Of a stretch of DNA of 20,000 nt, positions 2 through 19,587 are shown piece by piece. The stretch comes from an uncultured virus (IMG/VR IMGVR_UViG_3300035071_000047) (lineage: Duplodnaviria > Heunggongvirae > Uroviricota > Caudoviricetes). A program made the position numbers and the translations under genes. Position 1 is the first letter of the stretch; the number at the start of each line of letters is the position of its first letter. The DNA is taken from the IMG/VR virus record IMGVR_UViG_3300035071_000047; one strand, 5' to 3'. The notes beneath the pieces were generated by a model. The model was given only the letters and a program-made list of their open reading frames with translations, was not told where the DNA came from and ran no database searches.

Positions 2-202
2 GTGGCCGCCGCCTCGAGCAAGTGGAGGGCGTTCAAGGCGAACCTCTCCCAGTCGAATCCGGCGCCGACCCCGTTCGACTGGGGCCGCGTCGCCCTCGTC
101 GCGGTCGGCGGGGTCGTCCTCGGCGGGGCCGCCTACCTCGTGACGCACGCGCCGCCGCGACCCATCCGAAAACGCCGACCGATGCGACGCGCGTACGCAT
201 AG
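2..202 (+). CDS. 3' end of a hypothetical protein with C-terminal TM helix and basic tail (5'-truncated by window edge)
   Basis: Open frame from the window start with GC3-rich codons. Ends ...SNPAPTPFDWGR-VALVAVGGVVLGGAAYLVT-HAPPRPIRKRRPMRRAYA*. Confidence 0.75.
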   Translation: MAAASSKWRAFKANLSQSNPAPTPFDWGRVALVAVGGVVLGGAAYLVTHAPPRPIRKRRPMRRAYA

Positions 203-218
203 CAAAGGAGAGAAGCAG

Positions 219-392
219 GTGAAGAGAGTCATCGACGTGGTCCCGGAGTCCGACCTCGAAGCCGCGCAGCGACGCAAGCGAGAGTCCGACGAGGCGATCG
301 CGGAGGGTCGCCCGACCCTCAAAACGAACGTCCTCGGCGTCAAGCTCGCGCAGTCGCTCCTCGCCAAGAGCGTCAAGAAGAAGGGGGCCTGA
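219..392 (+). CDS. Small hypothetical protein, 57 aa (MKRVIDVVPESDLEAAQRRKRESDEAIAEGRPTLKTNVLGVKLAQSLLAKSVKKKGA); not in the ORF track
   Basis: AAGGAG SD at 205-210, GTG at 219, typical codon usage, and a TGATG overlap with the next ORF at 390-394. Confidence 0.75.
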   Translation: MKRVIDVVPESDLEAAQRRKRESDEAIAEGRPTLKTNVLGVKLAQSLLAKSVKKKGA

Positions 393-609
393 TGGCTAGA
401 CTGACTTCGTCGCAGCGTACGTTTACGCGGACGTTAGTGGATCGCGCCGGACGCTCCGTCGTGGTGCGCGTCGTGATCGACGAAGGGAAGCTCTCGACCG
501 CGTCATCGCTCGGTTGGCCAACAAAGTACGAAGCTCATCGACACAGAGGTCGGCCGTAGCCGCCGACGGCGTCATCCGCGTCACGATCGAGCAAGATCCG
601 GCGCGATAG
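392..609 (+). pseudogene. Small hypothetical protein apparently split by a 1-nt deletion near 491-495 (or a sequencing error)
   Basis: ATG at 392 is coupled to the upstream stop; the frame as read ends at TAG 557-559. Restoring one C (AAG CTC CTC GAC) gives ...VVVRVVIDEGKLLDRVIARLANKVRSSSTQRSAVAADGVIRVTIEQDPAR* ending at 609, which fills the gap and reads more like protein. Confidence 0.45.
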
Positions 610-642
610 ACACCGCGACCGTTCTGCGCCTATCCTCCGAGG
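607..642 (+). promoter_or_regulatory. Putative sigma70-type promoter giving a leaderless mRNA for the C1A peptidase
   Basis: TAGACA (607-612), 18-nt spacer, TATCCT (631-636), 6 nt, then ATG at 643. GAGG directly abuts the ATG, too close to act as an SD. Confidence 0.5.
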
Positions 643-1581
643 ATGAACGCTGCCCAACCCAAAACGTTCGGCCTCGGCTGGGTCAAGGACGCGTCTCACA
701 AGCGGACGCAGAAGAGCAGCTACGAGCTGCTCGGTACCTCTCCGGTCGTCCCCGCAGCGAGCTCGCTCGAACAGTACGAGGCCGCGTGCCTCGACCAGGG
801 TCGGAGCGGGTCGTGCGGCGGGCACGGGACCGCACAAGCCATCTTCGTCTCCTGCGCCGCGGCCCGCAAGCCGCTCCTCTGGACGCCGAGTCCCAGGGGG
901 GTCTACGCCATCACGCGCCAGATCGCGCGCATCCAAGGTCTGCCCGCGAATGCACCCCTCCCAGTGCTCACCGACTCGGGCGTCATGCCGGCGGACATCA
1001 TGACCGCGGTGACGTGGGGTATCCACAAGATGGCAGCACCGACGCCCGACGGCCGAAACTCCGACGTCTGGTCGCTCGACGACGTGCGCGGCCTCCCGAA
1101 CGCACCGCCCGCCAACGTCAACGACGAGGAGGACATCGCCAGCTTCGAAGCGGACGCGCTCACCGTCGTCACGGGCGAGTACCGCATCCTCGAGACCGCG
1201 AGCGACGTCATCACGCAGATGTGTGCCGCGCTCAGCGGCGTCGGGGCGCTCCAGAACGGGGTCCCGTGCGCCGTCGGGTTCGGCGGGTTCGTCGACGGGG
1301 CCGTCATGGACTGGAAGGCGGGCGACCCGCCGCTCACCAAGTTCGACACGTCGGACCCGCGCGGCGGCGGCCACTGGTTCTGCAAGTCGAGCTACTCCAC
1401 CGGCCACTTCAACGGCTACGTCAAGCGCGTCTTCCGCGTCATCAACTCGTGGGGCGCGGACTACGGCGACCGCGGCCACTTCGAGGTGACCGAGGACTGG
1501 GTCTACCAGCAGGTCCCCATGGGCTGCGACATCTACCCGTTCCACGTCGCCGACGTCTCACCGAAGAAGGTGGCCGCGTGA
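643..1581 (+). CDS. Papain-like (C1A) cysteine peptidase
   Basis: Oxyanion Gln and catalytic Cys in LDQGRSGSCGGHG, His in GGHWF, Asn in VINSWGADYGDRGHF. N-terminal GLGWVKD resembles the bacterial xylellain-type prosegment. Confidence 0.9.
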   Translation: MNAAQPKTFGLGWVKDASHKRTQKSSYELLGTSPVVPAASSLEQYEAACLDQGRSGSCGGHGTAQAIFVSCAAARKPLLWTPSPRGVYAITRQIARIQGLPANAPLPVLTDSGVMPADIMTAVTWGIHKMAAPTPDGRNSDVWSLDDVRGLPNAPPANVNDEEDIASFEADALTVVTGEYRILETASDVITQMCAALSGVGALQNGVPCAVGFGGFVDGAVMDWKAGDPPLTKFDTSDPRGGGHWFCKSSYSTGHFNGYVKRVFRVINSWGADYGDRGHFEVTEDWVYQQVPMGCDIYPFHVADVSPKKVAA

Positions 1582-1970
1582 AGATCCTCCTCGCTACGAT
1601 CCTCCTCAGCCTCGTCGCCCTCCTCGGCTTCCAGTGCGTCCCGTCGCCCACCGTCCCCGACGCGGGTGGCGCGGCGGACGCGGGGTGCGACGACGCGACC
1701 CCGCTCGAGGCCAAGAAGTGTCCGCCCTGCAACTGCGCGGCCGACGCAGGGCGCGACGCAAACCCGTCGCCGGCGCCCGTCGGCGACCTCGCCGACCAGG
1801 CGTGCAAGAACATCGCGCAGTGGTGCTCCGAGGGGAGGGCGGCCAACTGCGCCAGCGAGCTGCGCGCGCTCGCGCCGTCCCGTCTCGTCACGCTCGACCT
1901 GAAGGCGTGCGCGGCCGCCAAGAGCGCCGCCGACGTCCGCCGGTGCGGTCCGTTCCACTGTAACCCGTGA
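1578..1970 (+). CDS. Cys-rich secreted protein or lipoprotein, 130 aa
   Basis: GTGA overlap with the peptidase stop. Signal MKILLATILLSLVALLGFQC, three DAG motifs in a low-complexity linker, 11 Cys. The ORF-track upstream extension from 786 is spurious. Confidence 0.8.
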   Translation: MKILLATILLSLVALLGFQCVPSPTVPDAGGAADAGCDDATPLEAKKCPPCNCAADAGRDANPSPAPVGDLADQACKNIAQWCSEGRAANCASELRALAPSRLVTLDLKACAAAKSAADVRRCGPFHCNP

Positions 1971-2049: not shown

Positions 2050-2052
2050 ACG

Positions 2053-2504: not shown

Positions 2505-2514
2505 GGAGCCTCGA

Positions 2515-3678
2515 ATGAGCAAGGCGCGTCGGGAGACCCTGAAGCTGGTCTCCGTCACCATCTCGAACAATTCGTCGACGATCGAGCAGGCCATCACGTC
2601 CGTCGCCCCGCACGTCGACGAGGTCGTCCTGATCGACACGGGGATCACGGACGACACGAAGGAGCGCGTCGTCGTCGCGGCCGAGGCGACGCCGGTCCGC
2701 GTCGTGAAGTACCAGTGGATCGAGGACTTCGCCGACGCGCGCAACTTCGCGCTGCGCATGGCCAAGACGTCCGACGCCCAGTGGGCGCTCATCGTGGACT
2801 CGGACGAGTGGCTCACGTTCCCGAACGGGATCGACCTCAAGGCGCGCCTGCGCGAGGTCCAGCAGACGAGCGACCGCGTCGTCCACGTCCCGGACGAGAT
2901 CCGCAGCTACCACAAGATCCGGTTCATCCGCGTCCCCGCGACCAAGGCGTTCGTCGGCAGGACGCACGAGGTCTACCCGGGCACCGGCCCGCGCTGGGAG
3001 GACGTGACGTTCGGCGAGCACGTGAAGACGTCCGAGCAGTTCCAGCGCAAGTTCGAGCGCGACGAGCGCATCCTCATGGAGGAGACGGCTGCCGCCCCGG
3101 CCGACCAACGCTGGTGGTACTACCTCGGCGACACGCGCAAGAACCTGAAGAAGATCGACTCTGCGCTGGCTGCGTACATCAAGGCGGGGCAGTGTGACGG
3201 GTGGGACCAGGAAGGCGCGTGGGCCTGGTACCAGGCCGCGTGGATCTACGGCGAGAAGAAGGACAGCGCGCGCGCGCTGTGGGCGTGTCAGGAGGGACTG
3301 CGTCGCCACCCAGGGATCGCGGAGCTCGCGTGGACCGCCGCCCACTTCTGCTACTGGCTCGGTCGCTACCACCACGCCGTTTCGTACGCCAGCGCGGCGG
3401 TCGCGCTCGGGATGCACGCGGGGTGCGCGGGCGCGCTCGACCGCACCGGCTTCCAGTGGGCGCCCGCGCTCTGGGAGAAGCCGTACGAGGTGCTCATGTA
3501 CGCGTACGAGAAGATGGGCCAGCCCGCGCTCGCCGCCGAGGCCGCCGAGCTGTTTCACCAGGCGATCGCGGCGCGCGAGACCCACCAGCCGAAGTTTCAG
3601 CCCGCGACGACGACGACCAAAGTGTCCATGAGCGATGCGATCCTGCGCTCAGTCGCGGAAAACGCGCAGACCGGGTAG
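2515..3678 (+). CDS. Glycosyltransferase family 2 with C-terminal TPR-like repeats (SunS/SgtA-like architecture), 387 aa
   Basis: TAAGGAG SD then ATG at 2515. GT2 motifs DEVVLIDTG, WIEDFADARNFAL, IVDSDEW (DxD) and THE. TPR-like helices such as RWWYYLGDTRKNLKKIDSALAAY and HFCYWLGRYHHAVSYASAAVAL. Confidence 0.9.
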   Translation: MSKARRETLKLVSVTISNNSSTIEQAITSVAPHVDEVVLIDTGITDDTKERVVVAAEATPVRVVKYQWIEDFADARNFALRMAKTSDAQWALIVDSDEWLTFPNGIDLKARLREVQQTSDRVVHVPDEIRSYHKIRFIRVPATKAFVGRTHEVYPGTGPRWEDVTFGEHVKTSEQFQRKFERDERILMEETAAAPADQRWWYYLGDTRKNLKKIDSALAAYIKAGQCDGWDQEGAWAWYQAAWIYGEKKDSARALWACQEGLRRHPGIAELAWTAAHFCYWLGRYHHAVSYASAAVALGMHAGCAGALDRTGFQWAPALWEKPYEVLMYAYEKMGQPALAAEAAELFHQAIAARETHQPKFQPATTTTKVSMSDAILRSVAENAQTG

Positions 3679-3688
3679 ACTGAGGCTC

Positions 3689-5302
3689 ATGCGTGCACAT
3701 CTCGTACGGGCTGGCCAGCAGGCAAACGCGTGGTCGGCAGGGCTCAACGGTTGCGCTCCACCGGGGATGTTCGACGACGACACCGTCATCGCCGCCGCGG
3801 CCAACTGTGGAGCCAGCTACGCCCAGGCCAACGCCGCGACGATCGGCGCCGTCTTCGGACAGGCGTTCGTCGACGCTGCTAAAGCGTACGGCCTCACCAT
3901 GGGAGCGCTGGCCGCCGTGGGTACGGCCGCGGCCTTCGGTGTCCCGTGGGCCGAGGCGTCCATCATCCTCGCTGGTAACGTGTGTTCGGAGCTCCTTGGA
4001 GCCGTAGGTATCATCGTCGCTGGCGCAAACTCCATCCCGATCGTCGGAACGATCGTCGGCGCCATCGTCGCCCTCATCGCGGGCTTCGCGTCGCTCATCC
4101 ACACCTGCTCCGTCCAGATCACGAACGGCAACACGTACCACTGCGACGACTACATCAACATCAACCTGCGCAACGCGACCGACTGGCTGAAACAGGCCAA
4201 GTCGAAGGACCTCGTCGGCAAACGACCCGTCTGGATGGCCAACCAGTTCGACCTCTTCCTCGCGAACCCGGTGTGGATGTACAACAACCAGCAGCTGCTC
4301 GCGATCTCACAGCCGCCGCCGCCCGACCCGAACGACACGGGCGGCCCTGGACCCATCTACTACCAGATGCCGGGCGCGTTCGAGCTGCTCAACCGAGCCC
4401 AGATCGCCATCGCAACTCAGGTTGTGGCTGCCACCCCGGGGCAGCTACCGTTCTGGAAGAACGTCCCGTACCCAGGGCTTTTGATCCCGAACCCTGACGC
4501 CGATTGGCAGCCGGGGGGGAACGAACCTGGAATCCTGACGACCTGGCAACCGGGGAAGATCACGACTCAGCTCGACCCGTCCAACCCGCTGGGTGGAACG
4601 CAGACGTCGACCTACGAGGCGTGCCCGTACCTCACGAACTTCCCCGAGGGCGTCAACCTGACCGCCGGCATGTACATGCTCCAGATCATGTACCCGGCTC
4701 TCACCAAGAGCCAGTGCGACAAGATCTTCGCCACCGTCCAACCGATGTACGACGACGTTCGGTCGCAGGCGATGTCGTGGGCCAACACGCAGTGCCCGTG
4801 CCCCTACTTGCCAGACCTCGGACCCGGCTCGTCGTGGAACCTGACGGTCGAGGACGCGACGGCCGTCATCAACGCGTGGACGGGTCCCCTCGACGGAAGC
4901 TGCGTCTCGGCCCCTGGACCGAAGATGGCGATCCTGCAGGCGCTCGCGGACGTCCAGTGTCCAGCTCCGACCGCCACCCAGGTCCAGGCGCTGGACAAGA
5001 GCGGGACCCTCAGCGACTCCGACGCGCAGGTGATCGTCCAGCGCTGGTCGTACGAGGGCAGGGGGGCGTGCGTCGGCGGTCGCGTCGTGGAACCCGCGGC
5101 GTCCTCCGCGGCGACGAAGGTCGCAAAGACGGCCGCGGTCGCCGCGGGCGTCGGAGCGCTGGGCGTCCTCGCCTTCGCGCACGTGAACCACATGACGTTC
5201 GTCGGGGCCGCGCGCCACCTCGGGTCGAAGGTCGCCACCGGGACGGAGCGGCTGGCCAAGAAGGTCTTCCCGCCCGCGCACCGACTGAAGAGGGCGAGGT
5301 AA
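3689..5302 (+). CDS. Large membrane-associated protein, 537 aa: N-terminal hydrophobic helical region, Cys-containing central domain, C-terminal TM helix and basic tail
   Basis: ATG at 3689 follows TAGACT-N7. Long hydrophobic stretch LTMGALAAVGTAAAF...SIPIVGTIVGAIVALIAGFASLIH. C-terminal AAVAAGVGALGVLAFAH followed by ...KKVFPPAHRLKRAR*. Confidence 0.8.
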   Translation: MRAHLVRAGQQANAWSAGLNGCAPPGMFDDDTVIAAAANCGASYAQANAATIGAVFGQAFVDAAKAYGLTMGALAAVGTAAAFGVPWAEASIILAGNVCSELLGAVGIIVAGANSIPIVGTIVGAIVALIAGFASLIHTCSVQITNGNTYHCDDYININLRNATDWLKQAKSKDLVGKRPVWMANQFDLFLANPVWMYNNQQLLAISQPPPPDPNDTGGPGPIYYQMPGAFELLNRAQIAIATQVVAATPGQLPFWKNVPYPGLLIPNPDADWQPGGNEPGILTTWQPGKITTQLDPSNPLGGTQTSTYEACPYLTNFPEGVNLTAGMYMLQIMYPALTKSQCDKIFATVQPMYDDVRSQAMSWANTQCPCPYLPDLGPGSSWNLTVEDATAVINAWTGPLDGSCVSAPGPKMAILQALADVQCPAPTATQVQALDKSGTLSDSDAQVIVQRWSYEGRGACVGGRVVEPAASSAATKVAKTAAVAAGVGALGVLAFAHVNHMTFVGAARHLGSKVATGTERLAKKVFPPAHRLKRAR

Positions 5303-5304
5303 CG

Positions 5305-5628: not shown

Positions 5629-5796
5629 ATGCCCACGTACTTAGCGCTCGGTCCCGTCTGTCTTCGTCACCCGTACGCGCTGCCGCACGCAGGCCCATTC
5701 GCGTGGACATGCCTCTTCTGCAGGCGCGAGCTGGGCAACAAGAAACCAGATCAGAACGGGAATGTTCGGTACCACTCAAGACTCGAGTCGACGTGA
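5629..5796 (+). CDS. Small putative zinc-binding protein, 55 aa (MPTYLALGPVCLRHPYALPHAGPFAWTCLFCRRELGNKKPDQNGNVRYHSRLEST); not in the ORF track
   Basis: ATG immediately after the upstream TGA, GAGGG SD, CxxH...CxxC motif, GTGA overlap with the next gene; exactly fills the gap. Confidence 0.6.
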   Translation: MPTYLALGPVCLRHPYALPHAGPFAWTCLFCRRELGNKKPDQNGNVRYHSRLEST

Positions 5797-6284
5797 GCCT
5801 CAACTCCATCCAGGGCACCCTCGTGAACGTCCGCGCGCAGGCCGACGACGCGCAGAGCCTCGTCGACGCGGGCGACAGGGAGCCCTCCGACAAATCCGCG
5901 ATCGACGACTACCGCAGGGCCGCGAGCCGCGCGGACACGGTCGCCACGCTCTGCCAGAACGTCACCGGGATCGTCGTGCAGGAGGTCCCGTCGACGGCGG
6001 GGTACGACGCGGCCGTCGCGAGCGAGGTGGACGCCGCCTCCGCGAGCGACTCCGAGGCGGGCCACGCGACCACACGAGCCGCCGCCCGCGCGGCGGCCGT
6101 CGCCGGTGTCGCCGCTGCCAGGAGCGCCATCAGCTACGCCACCGCGGCCGCGAGCAAAGTGCCCGCGACCCCGCGGGTCACCGTCGGGTGGTTCGCGGCG
6201 GCCGTCGTCGTGGTCGCCGCGGGAGCCTTCGTGTTCGCCAAGTACCGCCCGAAGAGGACCGTGCCCCGGATAGCGTACCCATGA
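5793..6284 (+). CDS. Ala-rich helical protein with C-terminal TM helix and basic tail, 163 aa
   Basis: GTG start at 5793, where codon usage switches to GC3-rich. Ends KVPATPR-VTVGWFAAAVVVVAAGAFVFA-KYRPKRTVPRIAYP*. ATGA overlap with the sigma gene. Confidence 0.75.
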   Translation: MSLNSIQGTLVNVRAQADDAQSLVDAGDREPSDKSAIDDYRRAASRADTVATLCQNVTGIVVQEVPSTAGYDAAVASEVDAASASDSEAGHATTRAAARAAAVAGVAAARSAISYATAAASKVPATPRVTVGWFAAAVVVVAAGAFVFAKYRPKRTVPRIAYP

Positions 6285-7156
6285 GCGCCTTCGAATCGTT
6301 CGTCTCCAGGGCGAAGCTGGCCCCCGTCCTGTCGGTGCAGCACGAGATCGAACTCCTGCGCCGCGCGAAGTCAGGCGACGCGCGCGCCCTCGACTCGGTC
6401 GTCCAGTCCAACTTCCGGTACGTCCTGCAGATCGCCCGGAGGGTCCCGCGCCGTGGCGTCCCGATCGAGGACCTCGTGTCGGAGGGGAACGTCGCGCTCG
6501 CTCACTCCATCCCACGGTTCGACTGCGACCGCGGGTTCCGGCTCATCACGTACGCATCGCGGTACATCTTCGCCCGCATGAACGAGTACGTCCGCGTGCG
6601 ACGCGACGGGCTCGTCGGGGGTCTCGGCTCCGGGACGATCCGCTACCGAGCCTTCTACAAGGTCAAGCGCCACAGCTCCCAACTCGAGGCGCTCGGGCTG
6701 TCGAAGGACGAGGTCGTCCACCGACTCTCCGAGTCGTTCGGGGTGAAGGTGTCCGAGGTCGAGAAAGTTCTCGCCCGTCACGCCGTCGCCTTCCTCTCGA
6801 CCGCGACCGTCGTCAGCACCGACAGCAGCACAGGCAAGAGCGTCACGATCGAAGATCAGATCGCGGACGACGGGCCGACCGCAGACGAGCGGATCGCGCA
6901 GACCCAGGACGTCATTCGTACCGCCGTCCAGGTCCACACCGCGCTCCAGACCCTCACGGATCGCGAGCGCACGATCGTCCGATCTCGGCACATGGAGGAG
7001 ACGGGTCGATCGCTCTCGGATCTCGGGCGCGAGCTCGGTCTGTCCAGTGAGCGCGTTCGTCAGATCGAGGTCGTCGCCCTGGGCAAGATGCGTCGGTTCC
7101 TCGAGAGATCTCGTCGGTCGCGCCCGACGGAGCGAGTGGTACGCTTGGCGGTATGA
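6281..7156 (+). CDS. Sigma-70 family RNA polymerase sigma factor, RpoH/sigma-32-like, divergent, 291 aa
   Basis: Region 1.2 PVLSVQHEIEL; 2.1 VVQSNFRYVLQIARR; 2.2 EDLVSEGNVAL; 2.3 RFDCDRGFRLITYA; region 4 LTDRERTIV...SLSDLGRELGLSSERVRQIEVVALGKMR. No region 1.1. Confidence 0.92.
   Translation: MSAFESFVSRAKLAPVLSVQHEIELLRRAKSGDARALDSVVQSNFRYVLQIARRVPRRGVPIEDLVSEGNVALAHSIPRFDCDRGFRLITYASRYIFARMNEYVRVRRDGLVGGLGSGTIRYRAFYKVKRHSSQLEALGLSKDEVVHRLSESFGVKVSEVEKVLARHAVAFLSTATVVSTDSSTGKSVTIEDQIADDGPTADERIAQTQDVIRTAVQVHTALQTLTDRERTIVRSRHMEETGRSLSDLGRELGLSSERVRQIEVVALGKMRRFLERSRRSRPTERVVRLAV
7137..7152 (+). promoter_or_regulatory. Putative extended -10 promoter giving a leaderless mRNA for the PG hydrolase gene
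   Basis: TG-G-TACGCT (7137-7145), 7 nt, then ATG at 7153; no SD. Confidence 0.45.
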
Positions 7157-8073
7157 CGAACCGCTGGCTCGACAAGGCGACGATCTACACGGCCGCGTAC
7201 GCGCGTGTGTTCGGTGCGGCACCCAGCCGACACGGCGTCATGTTCGGCCTGTCGGTCGCCGAACACGAGACTCGCTGCGGCGACGCGCTCGGCGGCAACT
7301 GGGGCGGCACGACCGCGGGCCAGCTCACCCCCTACGACCGCGCTGCCCTGCGAGCGGCGGGACTTTCGCCGTCCAACGAGGCCGACCTGCCCAAGGCGCA
7401 AGCTCTCCTCGGTCCGCGACCCAACATGATCCTCGGTCGCGACACGTCGGCCCAGAGCGGGTGGTACTGGATCTGGTTCTTCCATCCGGCCACGCCCGTC
7501 GATGGCGCCGCGTACTTCGTGAAGGTGCTGCTGCAGCAGCGACCCGCCTGTCGCGCCGTCGTCGACGACCCGACCGGGACGCTCGACGCGCTCGCGCGCG
7601 CCATGTACGCCTCGCACTACTTCCTCGGGGTCTTCAACCCGCACGCCGTCGTCACCTACAAAGGCAAGCAGATGCCGGGAGACGAGGCGAACATCGAGGC
7701 GTACCGCGACGCGATCGTCGCGATCGAGCAGGTCATCGAGGAGAGCCTCGCGGGCTGGGTCCCCAACGGACCGACGACTGTCCCGACGGAGCCGCCGTTC
7801 GACCTGTACGAGGTGATCGGCTACCAGGCGGCCCTCACGTGGCTCGCGCGGAAGATGGGTCACCCCGAGTTCGATCCGAGAGGGGTCGACGGCGACGCGG
7901 GGACCAAGACGCGCGCCGCCGTCCACGAGTTCCAGACCTACGTCCGCCTCCCGATCGCCCTGACCCCGGCTGCGGGACACATGGACGAGTCCACGCGCAT
8001 CGCGCTCGTGAAGGCGATCGAGATGGCGTCGCCCGCCACGACACCAGCGCCGCCTCCCATCCCATCGACCTGA
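7153..8073 (+). CDS. Putative peptidoglycan hydrolase (GH73/FlgJ-like lysozyme fold) with C-terminal PG_binding_1 domain
   Basis: Clear PG-binding motif GVDGDAGTKTRAAVHEFQ...GHMDESTRIAL. N-terminal AEHETRCG...NWGG, TPVDGAAYFVKVL and LARAMYASHYF loosely parallel GH73 motifs; the catalytic assignment is less certain than the binding domain. Confidence 0.65.
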   Translation: MTNRWLDKATIYTAAYARVFGAAPSRHGVMFGLSVAEHETRCGDALGGNWGGTTAGQLTPYDRAALRAAGLSPSNEADLPKAQALLGPRPNMILGRDTSAQSGWYWIWFFHPATPVDGAAYFVKVLLQQRPACRAVVDDPTGTLDALARAMYASHYFLGVFNPHAVVTYKGKQMPGDEANIEAYRDAIVAIEQVIEESLAGWVPNGPTTVPTEPPFDLYEVIGYQAALTWLARKMGHPEFDPRGVDGDAGTKTRAAVHEFQTYVRLPIALTPAAGHMDESTRIALVKAIEMASPATTPAPPPIPST

Positions 8074-8741: not shown

Positions 8742-11732
8742 ATGTCACTCGTTCCCACCCAGATCGTCTACGGCGGCCCGTCGGGACTGCAGGCTCAGGA
8801 TGCGGCGCTCGCGTGGGACGACACCCACAAGACGATGAGCATCGGCGCCATCGGGATCGTCGCGAGCATCCTGTTCAACCCAGGGGTACCGCTGGCGCGC
8901 ATCCTCGTGGGGACGCCGACCTCGGACGTACCCACCGCTGACATCCTCGTCCAGGCGCAGGCCCCGTTCGCGAGCGCGTCCGTCAACCAGACGCCGGGGA
9001 ACATCAACCTCAACATCCCCGCGCCCATCGGCGGGGCGGCCCACAGCGGCATCAACCTCCAGGACAGCGGCGTCACGTGGCTGACGTTCCAGCGGACCGC
9101 GTCGCTGTCGAACATCTCGTTCGCGGCCAGCGGGTCGCCCAAGCTGAGCCAAGCGGTGCGTGTGTCCGGAAATGGACAGCAGTTCCTCTTCCAGGCGCAG
9201 ACCGCGTCCCAGGCCAACGGGATCGGCGGAAACCTGGTCATGGACGGCGGCGACGCGCCCGGCATGAACGGCGTCGGCGGGCAGATGATCCTGACCGGCG
9301 GGTTCGGCGCCGCGACGGGCGGCAACGTCCAAGTCACGGGCGGACAGGGCGGCGTCACGGGCGGAAGCATCCTCTTCAACTCGGGCGTCGGACCCAACGC
9401 GGGGAGCGTCCTGTTCGGATCGGGCGGCACCATCTGGCTCTCGTTCAAGAACACGGGCGGGTCGACGAGCATGCAGCTCTCCTCGACCGCGCCGCATTTC
9501 ACGTTCAACCAAGTGGCCGCGACGAGCGGCGCTGGTGTGCCATGGGTCATTGCGGCCCAGAGCACGTCGGCGGTGGCCGCGGGCGGGAACATGTCCCTGC
9601 AGGCCGGCAACTCGACCGGCATCGGAGGCACGGGCGGCAACCTCCTCCTCTCCGCCGGCAACGGGTCCACGCCGGGCAGCACACAGATGCAGACCGGCGG
9701 CAACACATGGCTCACCTTCGCGAACGCCGGTGGTTCCTCTGGTCTCCTGTTCGCGGAGACGGCGCCACTGCCCGTTATCCGGCAGCTCGTCGCCACCGCA
9801 GCCCCTGGCGCGCAGCTCACGATCGCCTCTCAGAGCTCGTCCAGCGTCGGCCTGGCCGGCGGACCGCTCCTCCTCACCTCGGGCACCGGCGGAGGCGCGA
9901 GCGGCAATGGTGGCAACATCACCATCCTCGCAGGGAGCGGCGGATCGGGTAGCGGTGCGAGCGGGAGCATCCTGCTGAGCACAGGCAGCGGGGTCACGGA
10001 TGGATCCATCCAGCTCCAAAAGTTCGGGACGACGTGGCTGACGTTCGCGACGGCCACGGGCGCCACCTTCGCTACCACAGCTCCGACGCCGACCGTGTCC
10101 CAGGCCACCACCAGTACTGGAAACGGCGCAGTATTCACGATCCGAGCGCAGTCCACGACCGCCGCGAACGCTACGGGCGGCGTACTGTTCTTGACCGCCG
10201 GATCCAACACGGCAGGAACGAACGGTATCGGTGGCGACGTGATCGTTGCGGCCGGCGCAGGAAAGAACACGAGCACCGGAGCAGGAGGAAACATCGTCCT
10301 TGCCGTGGGTAACGGGTTCACGCACGGCAGCGTCCAGGTTCAGGACTCAGGCTCGACTTGGCTCACCTTCTCAGCCGTCGGCTCGGCCACCGTCACCTTC
10401 TCTCCTACCGCGGTCACGCCGTCCATCGGACAAGCCAACACGTCTTCTGGCAGCGGAGCCCTGCTCAGTCTCTACGCGCAGACTACGACGGCCGCAGGGG
10501 CCACTGGAGGGAATCTCCTCCTCTCTGCCGGGTACAACACGGTCGGAACCAACGGAATGGGAGGTGACGTCGTCATCACTTCCGGCGCTGGCAACGGCGC
10601 CGGCTCCGGCGCGGGTGGGCGCGTCATCCTCAACGCGAGCGGCGGCGCCACCGCGGGCGTCATCCTGTTCCAGGCTGCGGGCACGACGTGGCTCACGTTC
10701 TCCAAGACCGGATCGAGCACCAACGTCACCTTCAACTCCAACGCTCCGGCCGTGACGATCTCCCAGGGAACCACGACGTCGGCGAGCGGCGTCACCATGG
10801 CCATCACGGCGCAGGGCACGTCGTTCGGCGGAGGCGTCGGCGGCAACCTGAGCGCTTCGGCCGGATCGAGCAGCGCTGGCGTCGGCGGCAACCTACTGCT
10901 CAATCCTGGCCACGGAACAACGAACGGCGACGTCCAGATCTTCGACGGTAGCAGCAACCTCGTCTTCCGCGTCGACGGACCCAACCGAACCAACAAGGTC
11001 AGTGGTCCACTCATCGGCGACAGCACGACGAACGACTCGCTCCGGTTCGGCGTCACGACGCCGATCAGCCTCGCGGGCCGTTCGACGGACCTCACGCTGA
11101 CGAACGTGCAGTACGCGAACCAGACCATGACGTTCAACGGGACGCCCGCGGCGGCGACCTTCAACCTCGTCCTGCCGAACGTCGCCGGGTTCACCAAGGT
11201 CTTCGACCTCACCTCGGTCACCCCGGGCGTCGCCACGATCTCGGCCAAGGCCGGGACGTCCTCCGTCCTGCTGTCGCCCGGACGCGCCACGACCGTCTGG
11301 TACGACGGGACCACGTTGCACGCGCTCACGGGGGCCGGACTCGTCGAGACGGATTCCGCGACCGATACGGGCGTCTCGCTCGTCATCGGCCCGTACACGA
11401 CCCTGGTGGCCTCCGGCGTCTCCGTGACGCTCGCCGCGGGCGAGAAGCTCATCATCGACGTGGCGAGCCTGCTGAACACGGCTGGATCCGGGGCCGGAAC
11501 ACTGGCCGCGCAGTACCAGGTCACGGTGGACGCGTCCGTCGTGTCGCACGACGCGATCTCCACGGACAATACGAGGACCGGGTACAACCAGCCCTACGCG
11601 CGGTCGATCGAGGTCACGGGCCTCTCCGCCGGAACGCACACGGTCGACTTCCAGGCCCGCACCGACAACACGAGCACGGCGACGTACATCGCGAACAACA
11701 ACTCGCTCCGCGTCATGCGGTCGGCTGCGTGA
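8742..11732 (+). CDS. Large Gly/Thr/Ser/Ala-rich repetitive fibre/adhesin-like virion protein, 996 aa
   Basis: AAGGAG SD. Six repeats anchored by [T/I]WL[T/S]F and containing GGNL.L.AG units. Beta-rich C-terminal domain ending GLSAGTHTVDFQAR...SLRVMRSAA, typical of fibre tips. No signal peptide. Confidence 0.8.
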   Translation: MSLVPTQIVYGGPSGLQAQDAALAWDDTHKTMSIGAIGIVASILFNPGVPLARILVGTPTSDVPTADILVQAQAPFASASVNQTPGNINLNIPAPIGGAAHSGINLQDSGVTWLTFQRTASLSNISFAASGSPKLSQAVRVSGNGQQFLFQAQTASQANGIGGNLVMDGGDAPGMNGVGGQMILTGGFGAATGGNVQVTGGQGGVTGGSILFNSGVGPNAGSVLFGSGGTIWLSFKNTGGSTSMQLSSTAPHFTFNQVAATSGAGVPWVIAAQSTSAVAAGGNMSLQAGNSTGIGGTGGNLLLSAGNGSTPGSTQMQTGGNTWLTFANAGGSSGLLFAETAPLPVIRQLVATAAPGAQLTIASQSSSSVGLAGGPLLLTSGTGGGASGNGGNITILAGSGGSGSGASGSILLSTGSGVTDGSIQLQKFGTTWLTFATATGATFATTAPTPTVSQATTSTGNGAVFTIRAQSTTAANATGGVLFLTAGSNTAGTNGIGGDVIVAAGAGKNTSTGAGGNIVLAVGNGFTHGSVQVQDSGSTWLTFSAVGSATVTFSPTAVTPSIGQANTSSGSGALLSLYAQTTTAAGATGGNLLLSAGYNTVGTNGMGGDVVITSGAGNGAGSGAGGRVILNASGGATAGVILFQAAGTTWLTFSKTGSSTNVTFNSNAPAVTISQGTTTSASGVTMAITAQGTSFGGGVGGNLSASAGSSSAGVGGNLLLNPGHGTTNGDVQIFDGSSNLVFRVDGPNRTNKVSGPLIGDSTTNDSLRFGVTTPISLAGRSTDLTLTNVQYANQTMTFNGTPAAATFNLVLPNVAGFTKVFDLTSVTPGVATISAKAGTSSVLLSPGRATTVWYDGTTLHALTGAGLVETDSATDTGVSLVIGPYTTLVASGVSVTLAAGEKLIIDVASLLNTAGSGAGTLAAQYQVTVDASVVSHDAISTDNTRTGYNQPYARSIEVTGLSAGTHTVDFQARTDNTSTATYIANNNSLRVMRSAA

Positions 11733-12037: not shown

Positions 12038-12040
12038 CCG

Positions 12041-12484
12041 ATGAAGCTCATTCTCCTGCTCGCCGCCCTCACCGCCTGCTCGCCCGCCGCGTGGCAGGCG
12101 TTCACGAATGACCCCGCCGCGTACATCGCCACGTACGAGACCGACGTGGAGCAGTTCCTGTCGATCGCCGCGTCGATCTTTCAGGCGATCTACCCGCTCC
12201 TGACGCCCGACCAGCAGGCTAAGGCGCAAGCCAAGTACGTCGCGACCCTCGACGCCGTCCACCACTCCGAGCTCGCCCTGAACGAGGCCGTTAAGGCGGC
12301 GACGGACGCCAAGAAGCCGATCGACGTCGTGGCGCTCGTCGCCGACGTGTCTGCCGCCGTGACCCAGCTCGAGCAGGCCATCGTCGACATCAAATCCATG
12401 GTCGCGACCCGCGGCGCGTCCGGATCGGACCCGCGGATGGACGACCTGCACCGCGCGCGCGTCCTCGTCGCCTCCTTCCACTGA
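12041..12484 (+). CDS. Alpha-helical lipoprotein, 147 aa
   Basis: GAGGTGA SD; signal MKLILLLAALTAC with lipobox LTAC; amphipathic helical mature part. Confidence 0.85.
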   Translation: MKLILLLAALTACSPAAWQAFTNDPAAYIATYETDVEQFLSIAASIFQAIYPLLTPDQQAKAQAKYVATLDAVHHSELALNEAVKAATDAKKPIDVVALVADVSAAVTQLEQAIVDIKSMVATRGASGSDPRMDDLHRARVLVASFH

Positions 12485-12488
12485 TGCG

Positions 12489-13064
12489 ATGCTCGGCACG
12501 CACGAGAGCGAGCTAGGTGTCCTCGAGCTCGGGGCGGTCTGTCCCGAGCTCGAGACGGAGCCATCGATCGCGTTCGCTGCGTCCTCCTCGCGCACGGTCA
12601 CCCCACCGACCGCGCCGCGCCCGCCCGCCGTCCAGGATCGACCCGGGTCCGACTTCGTTCTCGAGGACCTGCTGCGCGAGCGGGAGCCGCAGCCCCTCGT
12701 CGTCCGCGGGCCCATTGACGACCCGTCCCCCGCCGAGTCGCCGGCCGTCGTCATCCTCAAGGGAGAGACCGTCGACCGGGTCGTCTACCGCGACACGGTC
12801 GTCGTGCGCAGGGTCCGGTCGCGCGCGAGAGCGACGCGACGACCGAGGCGCCGAGCGTCGATCGGCGCGGTCCCCGACTTCGTCCTCCCGCTCCCGTCGA
12901 TGACCGTCGCCGCCCCCGCGCCGCGCTGGCCGTGGCTCACGCCGACGCGATTTCTTCTCGTCGCCGGACTCGCCCTGCTCGGGGGTATCCTCCTCGGGAT
13001 GGCCCTCTCGAAGAAGCCGAAGCGCGTCCACGCGACGCGCGGTCGCGCGCGAATGGTGGCGTGA
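12489..13064 (+). CDS. Pro-rich protein with C-terminal TM helix and basic tail, 191 aa
   Basis: Fills the gap between neighbours; GC3-rich. Ends PAPRWPWLTPTR-FLLVAGLALLGGILLGMALS-KKPKRVHATRGRARMVA*. Confidence 0.7.
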   Translation: MLGTHESELGVLELGAVCPELETEPSIAFAASSSRTVTPPTAPRPPAVQDRPGSDFVLEDLLREREPQPLVVRGPIDDPSPAESPAVVILKGETVDRVVYRDTVVVRRVRSRARATRRPRRRASIGAVPDFVLPLPSMTVAAPAPRWPWLTPTRFLLVAGLALLGGILLGMALSKKPKRVHATRGRARMVA

Positions 13065-15533
<2,469 letters not shown>

Positions 15534-15542
15534 GATGAGGTC

Positions 15543-15830
15543 ATGCCGCTCACACTCACACAACCCATCGTGCAACCGACGATCGCCTCGTACGCCATCC
15601 GTAGGGCCACCTTGGAACTAGACACGGGGATGGTGACGGCGAATGTCCAGGCGATGGACGCGGACGGAGCCAACGTCGGCCCCGAGCAGTTCGTACAGCT
15701 GTACACGGAGGGATCCAACCCGGAGGAGCTATCGGCCGTCGAGTCGATGCTGTACCAGGAGCTGCAGCGCGTGTTCGGCGTGTCAGGAACGGTCACCAAA
15801 GAGTCCACCATCACCAAGGAGTCCCCGTGA
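15543..15830 (+). CDS. Hypothetical protein, 95 aa, directly after the collagen fibre (possible fibre chaperone/tip protein)
   Basis: TAGGAT-N6-ATG start; GTGA overlap with the next gene. Confidence 0.7.
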   Translation: MPLTLTQPIVQPTIASYAIRRATLELDTGMVTANVQAMDADGANVGPEQFVQLYTEGSNPEELSAVESMLYQELQRVFGVSGTVTKESTITKESP

Positions 15831-16369
15831 AGATCGTCACCGTCGTCGCCGCGATCGTCCTACTCGCGCTCACCGCGAGCTGCTCGTCGACCGTCTACAC
15901 GCACGGCGTTCCCAACCTCGTCCAGGTCGCCCCTGGCGTGTGGCGCTCCGGACAGCCGACGAGCGCCGGCGCGTGGGCGTACCTCCAGTCCATCGGCATC
16001 AAGCGCGTCGTCAAGCTCAACTTCGACGACGAGGGGTCCGACGTCGGCGCGACGAAGATCGGGATGGAAGTGATCCCGCTCCCCATCGAGCCCAACGGCG
16101 ACGTACTGACCGTCTTCCAGAAGCCAGACGGGAAGCGACTGTCATCGGCCGTCGCCGTACTCGGTGAGGGGAACGCCGAGAGCGCCGTCCTCGTCCACTG
16201 CACCCACGGGCAAGACAGGACGGGTCTCGTCGTCGCGATCTACCGCATCCAGCACGACGGCTGGCGCAAGAGCGCCGCGAGACGCGAGATGATCGCGCGC
16301 GGATTTCACTCGGAGCTCCCAGGGCTCGAGGAGTACTGGGAGGACGACGTCAAAGTGCCTGCTCACTAG
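15827..16369 (+). CDS. Lipoprotein Cys-based protein-tyrosine/dual-specificity (or phosphoinositide) phosphatase
   Basis: AAGGAG SD; signal [35 protein letters not shown]-loop [13 protein letters not shown] (CX5R), Siw14/LipA/MptpB-type. Confidence 0.9.
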
Positions 16370-16379
16370 GGGGAAACCA

Positions 16380-17897
16380 ATGTTCCGAAATTCTAGAAAT
16401 GCATCGTTCGCGGCCACGACGTACGCGGAGCGCGCGAGAGGTCCAACCGGCGCGACCGGCGCGACCGGCGCGACTGGGCCCACTGGACCTACGGGCGCGA
16501 CGGGAGCCACTGGACCTACTGGACCTACGGGTGCGACCGGTTCCACAGGTCCGACCGGGGCGACGGGACCCGTCTCTCTGCCCGGCGTCGCCAACGCCGC
16601 GATGCAGCAGGCCACGTGGTTCATCGACCCGGTGGGCGGCAACGACGCGAACAACGGGCTCACGCAGCCGACCGCGATCAAGACCTATCGCGAGCTCATG
16701 ACCCGCTGGGGGACCGCGTCGCCCACGCTCGCGCAGAACACCACGATCACATGGGTCACCTCGCAACCCGACGACTCCGACCCCGTGTACTTCACCCCGA
16801 TCATCGAGAACGGCGCGTTCGTCGAGATGACCGGGCTGCCGACGATCGTCCACAGCGGCACCCTCTCCGGAGTCGTCGCGAAGAACCGCGCGACGGGGCA
16901 GCTCCTCAACGCGAACATCGGCACGCCCGTCGCGCCCTACGTGGACGCAGGGACCGGCGTCTGGGGCACGCTCCTGCACAACACGACGCGAAACTCATGG
17001 TGCTGGCTATGGAACGCCGTCGCCGCTAACGTCGCCGAGCTCACGCAACCACTGGCGCCCTACGCGAGCTTCACGCGACTAGGCTTGCTCGTCGAGCACG
17101 ACGACACCGCGAACGGTGACGCGTACGACCTCGTCCAGTACCCGCAGACCAACATCGTCATGCTGGCCCCGACGATTGCCTTCTACGACGGGTCGTTCAA
17201 CAACTGGCTGCAGATCTCGAAGCTGCGGATCAACGACTCGTTCGGTACGGCCAACAACAACGTGTACGTGGGGCCCCACGTCGGGCTTGGGGAGACCTGC
17301 CTCAACAAGGAGATCTTCGGCGACCCGTTCGCCCGGAACGTGGACATCCGGCCGCCCTACGCCAACGTCATCTCTCCCGGCGGCGGGTTCTTTCCCGCGA
17401 GAGCCCAGGTCGGCGGCGGCGCCTACGGCAACGACTTCTACTCGTTCTTCGAGTTCTACCAGAACAACGTCTTCGACTACGACGTGATCCTCGACGCACT
17501 GGGACCCACCAACGGGCTGCAGATCGACCAGGCCCTGTACGGCGCCGTCTACATCCGACAGACGGGCGGGTGGGCGATCGAGGTGCTCGATTGGGGCGAC
17601 ATGCAGACGGCTTCCCCGTCCGGCGTCCAGGAGTTCTGGGGACCCGGGACGGTGAACGTCAACAAAGGCGGCACGATGTTCTACTCCGCGTCGGCGGCGT
17701 CGAAGTTCGTCAATGCCGGCGGGCTCCAGTTCGCGACGAGAACCACGGGCGCCAGTATCGACGCCGGCGGGCTCTGGCACCAAGGGATCACGTTGACGCC
17801 GGCACATCTCGACGCCGCTGCGGGCGTGGCCGGATTCGGCGGACTCGCCTTCGACTTGCCGACGGGGTCCACGTATACGACGGCGACTAGGGAGTGA
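16380..17897 (+). CDS. Spike/fibre-like protein with short N-terminal collagen tract and probable beta-helix body, 505 aa
   Basis: 15 Gly-X-Y triplets (16440-16574), then [23 protein letters not shown], the cap motif that precedes pectin-lyase-like beta-helices; aromatic/Asn/Gly-rich body. Confidence 0.75.
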
Positions 17898-18417
17898 CGC
17901 GCGACGCGTCCAGCGGCGTAGGCATGCCGTCCCTGGGTTCGTCCCGGTGGTCGGTCGTCATGACGCTCTCGGGGTGGCCGGTCGCCACCCCGACGTCGTC
18001 GTGCCCGAGACCCAGCGAGTGCCCTAGCTCGTGCGCAACGACGGCCTGCAGCCCGTTGGGTCGGACGTCCGACTCCGCGTCCAACTTGTCGACGTCCACG
18101 CACGACAGCGTCGACCCGTTCGGCGCCCACCACGTCCTGCCCGTCCAGCCGTCGAGCGCACAGTTGGGTCCGCGCAAGAAGTAGATCGCGTCGTCCTGTG
18201 GGTTCATCTCCCACTCCTGCTGGAGCGCGTAGTGGTCGCCAGACTCCACCACGAAGGAGACGGGCGCCACGCGCTCCCAGGACGCGACGGCGGCGTCGAG
18301 CGCGACGCGGTCGCCAGCGACGTAGTCCCGATCGACGAAGAGCGTCGGACGCGTCGTCATCGTGTCATGCGGCGACCGACACGACAGGAGGACCGACAGG
18401 AGGATGAGCCGCTTCAC
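17887..18417 (-). CDS. Lipoprotein metzincin (matrixin/M10-like) zinc metallopeptidase, 176 aa
   Basis: GTG at 18417 overlaps the upstream TGA; signal [24 protein letters not shown] (HExxHxxGxxH) and Met-turn ESVM. Overlaps the + strand gene end by 11 nt. Confidence 0.88.
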
Positions 18418-18641
18418 GTGAGCGTGGTGACCGTGACGTACTCGCATGTGGTACCCGGACACGTTAGACGGAGTCCCCAGAGCGTCATTCGCTGCTCGAG
18501 GAGCAGATCGCACTCGGGGCACGCGTGCGTCGCGACCGCCCTCGTGAGCTTCCTGCGCCACGCGTCGGCGCGCGCAAACTCGAGCTCGATGACCTCACCC
18601 GTGGGCGCTGCGGCGACCATGACCTCGAGCGTCTCGGACAC
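18414..18641 (-). CDS. Small zinc-ribbon protein (start uncertain: 18656 TTG, 18641 GTG or 18620 ATG)
   Basis: ...HACPECDLLLEQRMTLWGLRLTCPGTTCEY... (CxxC-x16-Cx4C); GTGA coupling to the metallopeptidase. Confidence 0.65.
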   Translation of the reverse strand: MSETLEVMVAAAPTGEVIELEFARADAWRRKLTRAVATHACPECDLLLEQRMTLWGLRLTCPGTTCEYVTVTTLT

Positions 18642-19587
18642 GCGGTCGGCCGTCAACCCTGCGCCGCCTCGGACCCATGAGGGCCAAGCCCCCCAAGAAC
18701 CCGCCCACCGTCGCCGCGAGTGCGATGGCGCCGGCCGCGACCGCCGCGGGGCGCGGTCGCGCGGGGCCCTCCTCACCCGGCTGCCACACGACGTTCTGGG
18801 GACAGCTAGGACCCACGCAGGGCGGGGTCCGACCGACAAAAGGGGCCTGCGGCACCCCCGGCTGCCGCAACACCTTGAGGGGGGTCCCTGGCGTCGCCAG
18901 CGGGGCGAGCGTCGGGTCCTGGACGATGTCCCACAGGTCCCTCGAGACGCCGTCCACGAAGCACGTGCGCGCCACGAGGAGGCAGTTCTGGGAGTAGTCA
19001 ACTTCTTGGATGCCGTGGACCCACCCGCGCCCCTGGACGACGTTGACGCCAGGCAGCGTCACCGACGGTGACCAAGTATGTCCAAGAAACGTCGGTGTCA
19101 AAAAATGCATGCCGTAGTTGATCGCGCGCCCGCTCGTCGCCGGGTTCGTCGCGAAGAGGTTGTCCACGATCCAGACCTTGCCCACCGTCTGCACGATGCC
19201 CTGCGTCGGACTTGCGGCCGCAACCTGCCCGTCGATCCACTCGCTCTGGTCGACCATCACTTTCGTGGTCACCATCGACGCGTCGGGCGTCTGCGTGTGC
19301 GGCGTCAGCGTCACGGCGCGCTGCGCGTACATCAGGTCGAGCAGCTTCGCCGTGAGCAGCGAGCAACCGATCGTGTCGGCGACCGTCTGCTTCAAGAACG
19401 CCGACATCGTGATCCGGACGCCACCGATCTTGAGCGCGTCGGCGAACACGCGGAATTCGCCGTGGTGGCCGGAGATGTCGCTCATCACGGTCGCCCAGTC
19501 GACCTCGTAGTCGCCCTGGCGGACGTGGTCAAGGATGACGGCGTCGCGCTTCGGACCCGGCAGCGCCGGGAAGTCGGTCGGCAGCAT
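18595..19587 (-). CDS. Uncharacterised conserved-domain protein (putative enzyme) with Pro-rich linker, C-terminal TM helix and basic tail, 330 aa
   Basis: TAGACT-N6-ATG start. Motifs Q.VAD..G..L.T.K..D, AINYGMH and VQGRGWVH...VDYSQ..LV recall an uncharacterised YGWH/DYS bacterial family. Ends AAVAAGAIALAATVGGFLGGLALM-GPRRRR. Confidence 0.8.
   Translation of the reverse strand: MLPTDFPALPGPKRDAVILDHVRQGDYEVDWATVMSDISGHHGEFRVFADALKIGGVRITMSAFLKQTVADTIGCSLLTAKLLDLMYAQRAVTLTPHTQTPDASMVTTKVMVDQSEWIDGQVAAASPTQGIVQTVGKVWIVDNLFATNPATSGRAINYGMHFLTPTFLGHTWSPSVTLPGVNVVQGRGWVHGIQEVDYSQNCLLVARTCFVDGVSRDLWDIVQDPTLAPLATPGTPLKVLRQPGVPQAPFVGRTPPCVGPSCPQNVVWQPGEEGPARPRPAAVAAGAIALAATVGGFLGGLALMGPRRRRVDGRPRVRDARGHGRRSAHG

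Follow-up and report, generated by a model that had tools for sequence, protein, structure and literature searches.

How does a bacterial virus fix otherwise soluble proteins to a membrane when they carry no signal peptide, and which membrane would this be? The question is raised by a 20-kb stretch of DNA (20,000 nt; in the following called the window), part of a contig of at least 72 kb (71.9 kb) from an uncultured virus, IMG/VR record IMGVR_UViG_3300035071_000047. An initial annotation had noted that five unrelated open reading frames (ORFs) in this window end in a linker, a transmembrane (TM) helix and a basic tail, and had proposed for them either a virus with a lipid membrane or an undescribed targeting system. 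We found that these anchors are real and beyond chance, are conserved in orthologues, recur on the cell-wall hydrolases of a relative and match no sortase-type signal.

Five window proteins end in a helix and a cationic tail

The G+C content is 65–71% along the whole window (68% overall), and 139 ORFs of at least 50 amino acids (aa) are open at this composition. Genes were therefore called by third-position GC (GC3), yielding about 24 genes: positions 1–17897 form a plus-strand block, and the remainder, starting at 17887, a minus-strand block. A megablast search detected no near match to the window among 50,697 deposited phage genomes, and Pfam and PHROG scans detected no terminase, portal or HK97-fold capsid in the 20-kb window; very divergent versions, or copies in the other ~52 kb of its contig, may nevertheless exist.

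The anchor was defined by a fixed criterion, a 19-residue Kyte-Doolittle window (KD19) of at least 1.6 inside the last 45 residues together with a net tail charge of at least +3. It selected five of the 22 called ORFs of at least 60 aa, compared with a mean of 0.15 and a maximum of 2 in 500 residue shuffles of the same proteins, and it selected no ORF among the remaining 93 in the six frames. Run on 91 kb from two tailed phages of high GC content, Mx8 and phiC31, the same script returned one match each, both unannotated antisense ORFs. The five are those named in the initial annotation. In all of them the hydrophobic 19-mer (KD19 1.79–2.51) ends 14–41 residues before the stop, the tail contains 5–10 Lys/Arg and 0–2 Asp/Glu, and the linker is rich in Pro, Ala and Thr, in agreement with the Pro/Ala-rich linkers described there. 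Their codon bias is of the coding type (GC3 0.86–0.90 vs. second-position GC 0.50–0.61). All five are genuine genes of an uncultured bacterial virus with a high GC content. Their anchor is modular: a flexible linker of Pro and Ala leads to a single helix rich in Gly, Ala, Val and Leu, which is followed by the cationic tail.

That the four complete proteins lack a signal peptide was likewise borne out, also with upstream starts taken into account. When each frame was extended upstream to the previous stop, KD11, used for N-terminal hydrophobicity, peaked at no more than 1.48 in the first 60 residues, compared with 2.79 for a lipoprotein of the window (12041..12484) taken as control. Because three clear lipoprotein-type signals occur in the window (see below), the missing signal on the anchored proteins is not a genome-wide trait.

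The first ORF (2..202, plus strand) is a 3′ fragment cut by the window edge, with its N-terminus unseen. Its helix lies at nt 89–145 (VALVAVGGVVLGGAAYLVT; KD19 2.12; GC3 0.90) and is followed by a tail of 18 residues with 7 Lys/Arg and the C-terminus RRAYA. The second (3767..5302, plus strand; alternative starts 3635 and 3689; 511 aa from 3767 in the database gene call, P0063) is a polytopic membrane protein according to the Kyte-Doolittle scan. Two strong TM helices at residues 110–128 and 137–155 (numbered from 3635), preceded by a weaker one, are followed by a Cys-rich middle domain of ~330 aa, the last TM helix (nt 5120–5176) and a tail of 41 residues with 9 Lys/Arg. Because of its extra helices it falls outside the definition of a tail anchor, which implies a single TM helix.

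The third ORF encodes a small Ala-rich protein on the plus strand. Its anchor (TM nt 6183–6239; KD19 2.34; tail of 14 residues with 5 Lys/Arg and the C-terminus RIAYP) is as described earlier; the earlier coordinates 5793–6284 are uncertain at the start, which may be the GTG at 5793 or the ATG at 5709 (5709..6284; GC3 0.86–0.94). No Pfam, PHROG or NCBIfam family was assigned to it. Its stop overlaps the start of the following sigma-factor gene in the sequence ATGA at 6281–6284, read directly, which suggests translational coupling of the two genes. In view of this coupling, an anti-sigma role was considered as a possibility for this protein.

The fourth (12489..13064, plus strand) is a Pro/Arg-rich protein of 191 aa encoded between the lipoprotein gene and a gene for a collagen-like fibre (TM nt 12951–13007; KD19 2.51; GC3 0.88; tail of 18 residues with 7 Lys/Arg). 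Neither a Pfam, PHROG or NCBIfam family nor, among 33 related viral records, a homologue was found for it. We considered it together with lipoprotein 12041..12484 as a spanin pair and dropped this assignment: measured against what typifies spanins, the lipoprotein has 147 aa and the TM helix of its partner is C-terminal, not N-terminal.

The fifth, on the minus strand (18595..19587), encodes a protein of 330 aa with a C-type-lectin/FGE-like fold domain at residues ~25–217 (in the following called lectin-TM protein). A Cys-containing Pro-rich linker, PPCVGPSCP, leads to the helix (TM nt 18691–18747) and a tail of 31 residues with 10 Lys/Arg. The model of its lectin domain had no Foldseek match in PDB or BFVD.

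A single TM helix near the C-terminus with no other TM helix or signal was found in 5709..6284, 12489..13064 and 18595..19587 and, as far as visible, in the fragment 2..202. The claim of a C-terminal anchor on all five proteins therefore holds for helix and tail and has to be narrowed for the polytopic protein and the fragment. The C-termini RRAYA and RIAYP, also noted initially, are present as stated, and a 64%-identical lectin-TM orthologue from another contig (P0003) ends in RRAYGR. Recognized post hoc, the three endings are at best a weak candidate for a short C-terminal motif.

The anchor is conserved as an optional module

The lectin-TM family comprises 62 homologues on contigs that reach 212 kb; three have an NCBI record, and the others come from metagenomes. 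The C-terminal helix is kept in 39 of the 62 members by threshold and in 4 more by eye; the remaining members are fragments or end soon after a conserved RQPGV motif. Tails range from 2 to 34 residues and are nearly always net positive, and two members possess an extra domain of ~90 aa beyond the helix. A conserved Cys pair, PPCxGPxCP, lies ~25–30 residues upstream of the helix. Because the anchor is kept in part of this family, it can be regarded as a module found in most members but not in all.

The polytopic protein gave a similar picture. Its homologue in the complete 79.6-kb record G012 (40% identity, E 1e-66) has kept the final anchor, and among three database homologues a C-terminal TM helix with a basic tail is found in P0064 and P0065, but not in P0066. 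In P0027, P0032, P0064 and the ORF 76065–77339 of the relative G001 (see below), the helix is followed not by a short tail but by a conserved domain of ~75–90 aa, exemplified by ‘...RPTTYQL.KI.AG.GE.LIF.DQ’ (lectin-TM and polytopic families). Since such post-helix domains exist in some family members, the tail side of the membrane can hold folded domains.

A search with the lectin-family alignment yielded 14 IMG/VR loci, 13 metagenome loci and one locus in a metagenome-assembled bacterial genome (Pirellulales). None of the 13 metagenome loci is the window's contig or a close relative of it. Single-protein IMG/VR scans with 18595..19587, 8742..11732 and 2515..3678 found no relative.

A relative with anchored cell-wall hydrolases

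The best IMG/VR locus of the lectin family lies in a record of 105,511 bp with a 127-bp terminal repeat (G001), whose lectin-TM protein is 52% identical to that of the window. We read this record whole, with 146 ORFs called by the GC3-based caller. PHROG matches among its 102 ORFs of at least 100 aa revealed a set of replication and nucleotide-metabolism genes including a PolA-type polymerase, an integrase, an endolysin and a metallopeptidase; at 1e-5, none of the matches fell on a terminase, portal, capsid, tail sheath or tail tube family. The sole ‘tail’ labels were a weak baseplate-hub/tail-fibre match of a 217-aa ORF and tape-measure families matched by an M23 domain. A Pfam scan of 88 ORFs found no tailed-phage hallmark families, and Phage_capsid had no match in this record.

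A C-terminal helix followed by a basic tail is present in a GH25 muramidase (E 1.4e-14) and an M23 peptidase (E 1.9e-19) of G001, in its homologue of the window protein 7153..8073 and in several proteins without assigned function. Papain-like proteases are encoded in both the window and G001.

Two further regions of G001 drew attention. At 97,800–101,300 (L034:17800–20000, L035:1–1300), ~3.5 kb of this densely coding genome hold no ORF with coding-type GC3 on either strand, which could be an origin, repeats or RNA. The late-block ORF L037:5250–7388 (G001 78839–80977) encodes a protein of 712 aa that Pfam did not match at 1e-3. It contains three hydrophobic helices and a stretch that by eye resembles a Hint/intein-type insertion (C...HN/SNC).

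A capsid-like protein of the lineage

The most codon-biased ORF in the late block of G001 encodes a protein of 444 aa (L034:3590–4924), with 175 cluster representatives of similar length. Its model, built with 67 sequences, is beta-rich (pLDDT 86.5, pTM 0.84) and had no Foldseek match at E ≤ 1e-3. The weak matches are headed by papillomavirus L1, with the STIV turret protein and a tetravirus capsid further down; three GH172/DUF2961-type enzymes, which we take to be cellular double-jelly-roll homologues, are also among them. The three nearest named ESM-Atlas clusters belong to the PRD1-P3 and PM2-P2 capsid families (0.77–0.80), which is a lead only, and the profile of the 444-aa family (A2) found no sequence relative in PDB. 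Together these matches point, short of proof, to a double-jelly-roll coat protein. In the A2 alignment, a near-invariant Gly-x-Gly stands close to the N-terminus (positions 20 and 22 of L034:3590–4924).

We found this capsid-like family in 36 IMG/VR loci, 33 of them in contigs of 29–128 kb. According to CheckV, 24 of these 33 lineage records are at least 90% complete, and many are bounded by terminal repeats; Terminase_6N was matched in none of the 33. Neither the capsid-like nor the lectin-TM family had a match among the 50,697 deposited phage genomes. No P-loop candidate for a packaging ATPase was seen in the late block of G001, and the sole PHROG ‘ATPase’ match of this genome (51790–52602) was rejected for this role as an acidic protein without a Walker motif.

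Around the capsid-like gene, G001 and G012 share a block encoding a 146-aa protein, a Lys/Ala-rich TM protein and proteins of 444, 200 and 273 aa. The ESM Atlas yielded nothing usable for the 273-aa neighbour. The ORF adjoining the capsid-like gene, L034:1801–3525 (G001 81801–83525), is kept in G012; the N-terminal half of its 574-aa product is a Lys/Ala-rich, histone-H1-like repeat and the C-terminal half contains hydrophobic helices. It is a candidate for joining the DNA to the membrane.

The surroundings of the capsid-like gene in 36 loci, 682 kb in all, contain 43 coding-like anchored ORFs, compared with none in the 91 kb of Mx8 and phiC31. In the lineage, the anchored ORFs concentrate at distances of up to 10 kb from the capsid-like gene.

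Six gene families link the window indirectly to this lineage

Six gene families with clear matches link the window, indirectly, to the lineage, namely those of the lectin-TM protein, 7153..8073, the C-terminal domain of a fibre, a glycosyltransferase with TPR repeats, the polytopic protein and a papain-like protease. Two further matches are weak, one of them concerning the sigma factor (G021, G031). The other is the anchor of 2..202, whose last 52 residues are 40% identical to the C-terminal anchor of a 370-aa ORF in L043, located ~5 kb upstream of the capsid-like gene (E 1.4e-4 with composition statistics off, hence a weak lead). The motif GG-x-AYLVT-H/R-x-P of this anchor weakly matches anchored ORFs beside the capsid-like gene. 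Contigs of 75566, 105511, 108620, 153724 and 36524 bp appear in the match tables of both the lectin family and the capsid-like family; the lectin-TM protein of the 153,724-bp contig is 61% identical to that of the window. The capsid-like family is absent from 10 other searched IMG/VR records with a lectin-TM gene. This gene therefore moves between virus types and alone cannot place the window.

The role of the anchors

The explanation of these observations that we consider the most likely, at about even odds, is that the anchors load otherwise soluble cargo onto a virus-specified membrane of a tailless PRD1-like particle. In its favour speak the excess of anchors over chance and their conservation, the anchored hydrolases of G001, the gene links to the lineage, the lack of tailed-phage hallmarks, the PRD1 proteins scored as controls (see below) and the anchored ORFs near the capsid-like gene. 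The proteins would first enter a patch of the host cytoplasmic membrane, which would then become the internal lipid layer of a tailless icosahedral particle. A signal peptide would be dispensable if the C-terminal helix drives insertion after translation, which is how tail-anchored proteins enter membranes and has been inferred for PRD1 P7. The cargo, lectin-fold and Cys-rich domains in the window and GH25 and M23 peptidoglycan hydrolases in relatives, would be fixed to the membrane, where it might help to penetrate the cell wall, bind a receptor, deliver DNA or lyse the cell. If the positive-inside rule applies, the tail would be inside and the cargo outside, which would require an export route that is not known; in the opposite orientation the cationic tails would reach into the DNA-filled lumen of the particle.

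The anchors are seen directly, and the double-jelly-roll capsid and hence the membrane of the window's virus we infer from its relatives only; the lipid-membrane virus with tail-anchored cargo that had been proposed initially is supported to this extent. More tentatively, with the balance tipping slightly towards doubt, the data might describe an undescribed lineage of large tailless bacterial viruses that combine a PRD1-like double-jelly-roll shell and an internal membrane with a helix and cationic tail as a Sec-independent ticket to the virion membrane. Its members would measure 53–127 kb, with at least 72 kb for the window's virus, and its cargoes would include hydrolases of the cell wall, a receptor binder with a lectin fold, and proteins of the Cys-rich or LysM type. 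The anchors would then amount to a tail-anchor sorting system of viral origin.

Several observations weigh against loading onto a virion membrane. Three window proteins have ordinary lipoprotein signals, indicating that this virus also exports proteins to the host envelope. The 10 records that combine a lectin-TM gene with the lack of a capsid-like family count here as well, as does the absence of the anchor in about a third of the lectin-family members. The gene links lead each to a different lineage member, at 25–52% identity, with a maximum of three window genes in any single relative. A packaging ATPase of the FtsK/A32 type, a defining protein of most double-jelly-roll viruses, was not found: PF01580 (FtsK_SpoIIIE), the only family model searched, was hit in one of 33 records at 11.4 bits, below the cut-off, and the P-loop ORFs of G001 with family matches are replication or recombination proteins. 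Finally, lysis proteins whose transmembrane domain (TMD) is C-terminal occur in ordinary tailed phages, too.

The last point leads to the strongest alternative, a serious one that we nevertheless consider rather doubtful. The anchored proteins might act in the host membrane only, in lysis, superinfection exclusion or envelope remodelling, so that the particle type would be irrelevant and possibly tailed. The model would be the C-terminal-TMD endolysins of chi-like phages, which need their TMD for lysis independent of Sec and holin. M4Lys and Enc34 ORF39, both enzymes without a signal, combine a C-terminal TMD with a basic tail and each bring about lysis unaided; the enzymes that bear the anchor in G001, GH25 and M23, act on the host wall. 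However, Pfam, PHROG and NCBIfam recognized no wall-hydrolase domain in any of the five window proteins, and five such proteins per 20 kb far exceed the need of a lysis cassette. An envelope-directed gene set does exist in the window (three lipoproteins, a wall-binding protein and a glycosyltransferase), and among the 10 IMG/VR records with a lectin-TM gene and no capsid-like family, several have 160–529 kb or are classed as provirus. Against this stands the position of the anchored ORFs within 10 kb of the capsid-like gene, in a lineage in which no tailed-phage hallmark was detected. The passage of the cargo across the membrane would also be left unexplained.

Very improbable is a processed sorting signal of the LPXTG, PEP-CTERM, MYXO-CTERM or GlyGly-CTERM type, cut by a host enzyme for attachment to the wall or release. 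The resemblance to such signals pointed out in the initial annotation is confined to the layout, which is identical in linker, hydrophobic helix and basic tail, and the conserved Cys pair PPCxGPxCP before the helix of the lectin family also counts in favour of such a signal. This pair is ~25–30 residues away from the helix, though, and by eye the five ORFs share no motif directly before it. NCBIfam, which presumably includes curated models of LPXTG/PEP-CTERM-type signals, gave no sorting-signal match at E ≤ 1 for the five window proteins and four anchored G001 proteins; the only Pfam trace was an LPXTG anchor at E 0.021 in one G001 protein, below the cut-off. The four complete proteins lack the N-terminal signal peptide, tail length in a single family can be anything between 2 and 34 residues, and Pfam detected no sortase-like gene among 23 window ORFs.

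That the pattern is an artefact, from miscalled frames or chance hydrophobic stretches in Ala/Gly/Val-rich high-GC ORFs, is hardly conceivable and largely refuted: Ala, Gly, Val, Arg and Pro are indeed enriched at 68% GC with 139 ORFs open, and antisense ORFs at other loci occasionally pass the threshold, but GC3 is high in all five, 0 of 93 ORFs in non-coding frames qualify, shuffling gives 0.15 vs. 5 observed, and homologues from other samples have kept the anchor for two of the five.

Other genes in the window

The remaining genes include further candidates for envelope-directed functions. On the plus strand, 643..1581 encodes a candidate papain-like cysteine protease (weak Peptidase_C1_2 and phrog_16701 matches; no TM helix, no signal peptide) that is 48% identical to an ORF in the related record G015 (E 7e-59). 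Further along lies the gene for a family-2 glycosyltransferase with TPR repeats (2515..3678, plus strand; PF00535, E 4.6e-8; phrog_13126, E 1e-15). L044 and L045 encode 37%-identical homologues no more than 10 kb from the capsid-like gene, and G012 encodes one of 25% identity. The family scan assigned a DUF4259 protein to 5299–5628. The sigma-70-family factor at 6281..7156 (plus strand) contains Sigma70_r2 and r4 and matches phrog_351 at E 5e-42. The next gene on this strand, 7153..8073, encodes a possible cell-wall-binding or lytic protein (weak matches to PG_binding_1 and the endolysin family phrog_1493; no TM helix); its G001 homologue (36844–38307, 31% identity) ends in a TM helix.

Three proteins have a lipobox Cys. 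These are a lipoprotein (12041..12484, plus strand; lipoprotein-type signal peptide MKLILLLAALTAC, lipobox LTAC), a dual-specificity/Tyr phosphatase (15827..16369, plus strand; lipoprotein-type signal LLALTASC) and, on the minus strand, a zincin metalloprotease (17887..18561; lipoprotein-type signal after an internal start, lipobox LLSC). The latter two are enzymes, presumably sent to the host envelope.

The fibre-like protein encoded by 13068..15533 (plus strand) has two collagen-like Gly-X-Y arrays (PF01391, E 9e-24), and a second collagen-like fibre protein (16380..17897, plus strand) has homologues of its post-collagen domain in G001, L042 and L060. The initial annotation had taken such fibres to be of tailed-phage style. 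The PHROG ‘tail fiber’ matches of both proteins lie in or beside the Gly-X-Y repeats and because of this location are uninformative on a tail. Upstream of them, 8742..11732 (plus strand) encodes a Gly/Ser/Thr/Ala-rich protein of 996 aa with six repeat units, each with a W-L-[TS]-F motif (GVTWLTF, TIWLSF, GNTWLTF, GTTWLTF, GSTWLTF and GTTWLTF). It had no Pfam, PHROG or NCBIfam match and no IMG/VR relative by pattern scan, and is probably a beta-helical fibre or spike.

Comparison with known systems

With sortase and exosortase signals, the anchors share the tripartite layout only; signal peptide, signature motif and model match are missing in the window proteins, and a sorting enzyme in the window. 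Cellular tail-anchored proteins resemble four of the five in having one TM helix within ~50 residues of the C-terminus and no signal. The classical bacterial tail anchors ElaB and YqjD, however, have tails of a few residues, compared with 14–41 residues and 5–10 Lys/Arg in the window. Tail-anchored proteins moreover keep their N-terminal domain on the cytoplasmic side, whereas by the positive-inside rule the window tails are predicted to be cytoplasmic, with the large N-terminal cargo outside. For the lectin domain, the comparison group is formed by receptor binders with a C-type-lectin fold, such as Mtd of a Bordetella phage and the Bdellovibrio fibre tip Bd2740.

Among phage proteins, C-terminal-TMD endolysins of chi-like and related phages come close; Siskin and AP1 LysAP are reportedly further members of this class. 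M4Lys of phage BSPM4 is a signal-less protein with a C-terminal TMD and basic residues and a predicted N-out/C-in topology; it cannot do without its TMD, and azide does not affect its lysis, which needs no holin (PMC7143992). Enc34 ORF39 is another signal-less C-terminal-TMD endolysin, for which the authors state that there is no known translocation route (PMC8943055). The window proteins share with them the TMD followed by basic residues and the lack of a signal peptide, and the GH25 and M23 proteins of G001 fit the class. The endolysins are single lysis enzymes of tailed phages, in contrast to the 20 kb studied here, which encode five proteins that are unrelated and for the most part not enzymes; the N-terminal peptidoglycan-hydrolase domain of the endolysins has no counterpart in the five. 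Because such endolysins have been published, the single-protein architecture is not new, and the initial suggestion of an undescribed tail-anchor targeting system went too far; the new elements are its use on many cargoes that are unrelated to one another and the type of virus in which it may occur. The delivery of a large domain to the far side of a membrane by a C-terminal helix alone is an open problem, for which this lineage offers a set with varied cargoes.

Returning to the virion membrane, PRD1 offers the nearest model. Its transglycosylase P7 (P7/P14) has a soluble N-terminal enzyme domain, no signal, one C-terminal TM helix and a short net-positive tail; as positive controls, P7 (without an N-terminal signal) and P18 were scored C-terminally anchored by the script used here. 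P7 sits in the internal virion membrane, which derives from virus-modified patches of the host membrane. PRD1 has a double-jelly-roll coat, the fold that, as a lead, best matches the modelled structure of the lineage's conserved late 444-aa protein. PRD1 differs in the lack of sequence similarity, in its shorter and far less cationic tails, and in having the P9 packaging ATPase and a protein-primed polymerase, compared with a PolA-type polymerase in G001 and no packaging ATPase found in the lineage. It also has only 14.9 kb and ~30 genes, compared with at least 72 kb here and 53–127 kb in the relatives.

We found no description of a bacterial double-jelly-roll virus larger than 50 kb in the open-access literature searched. 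A September 2026 review describes the phylum Preplasmiviricota including Tectiviridae as tightly constrained in genome size. Should the membrane-containing virion prove true, a lineage of 50–130 kb would alter this picture, being several-fold larger than the 7–18 kb given for bacterial and archaeal double-jelly-roll viruses in a 2018 survey (PMC5894146).

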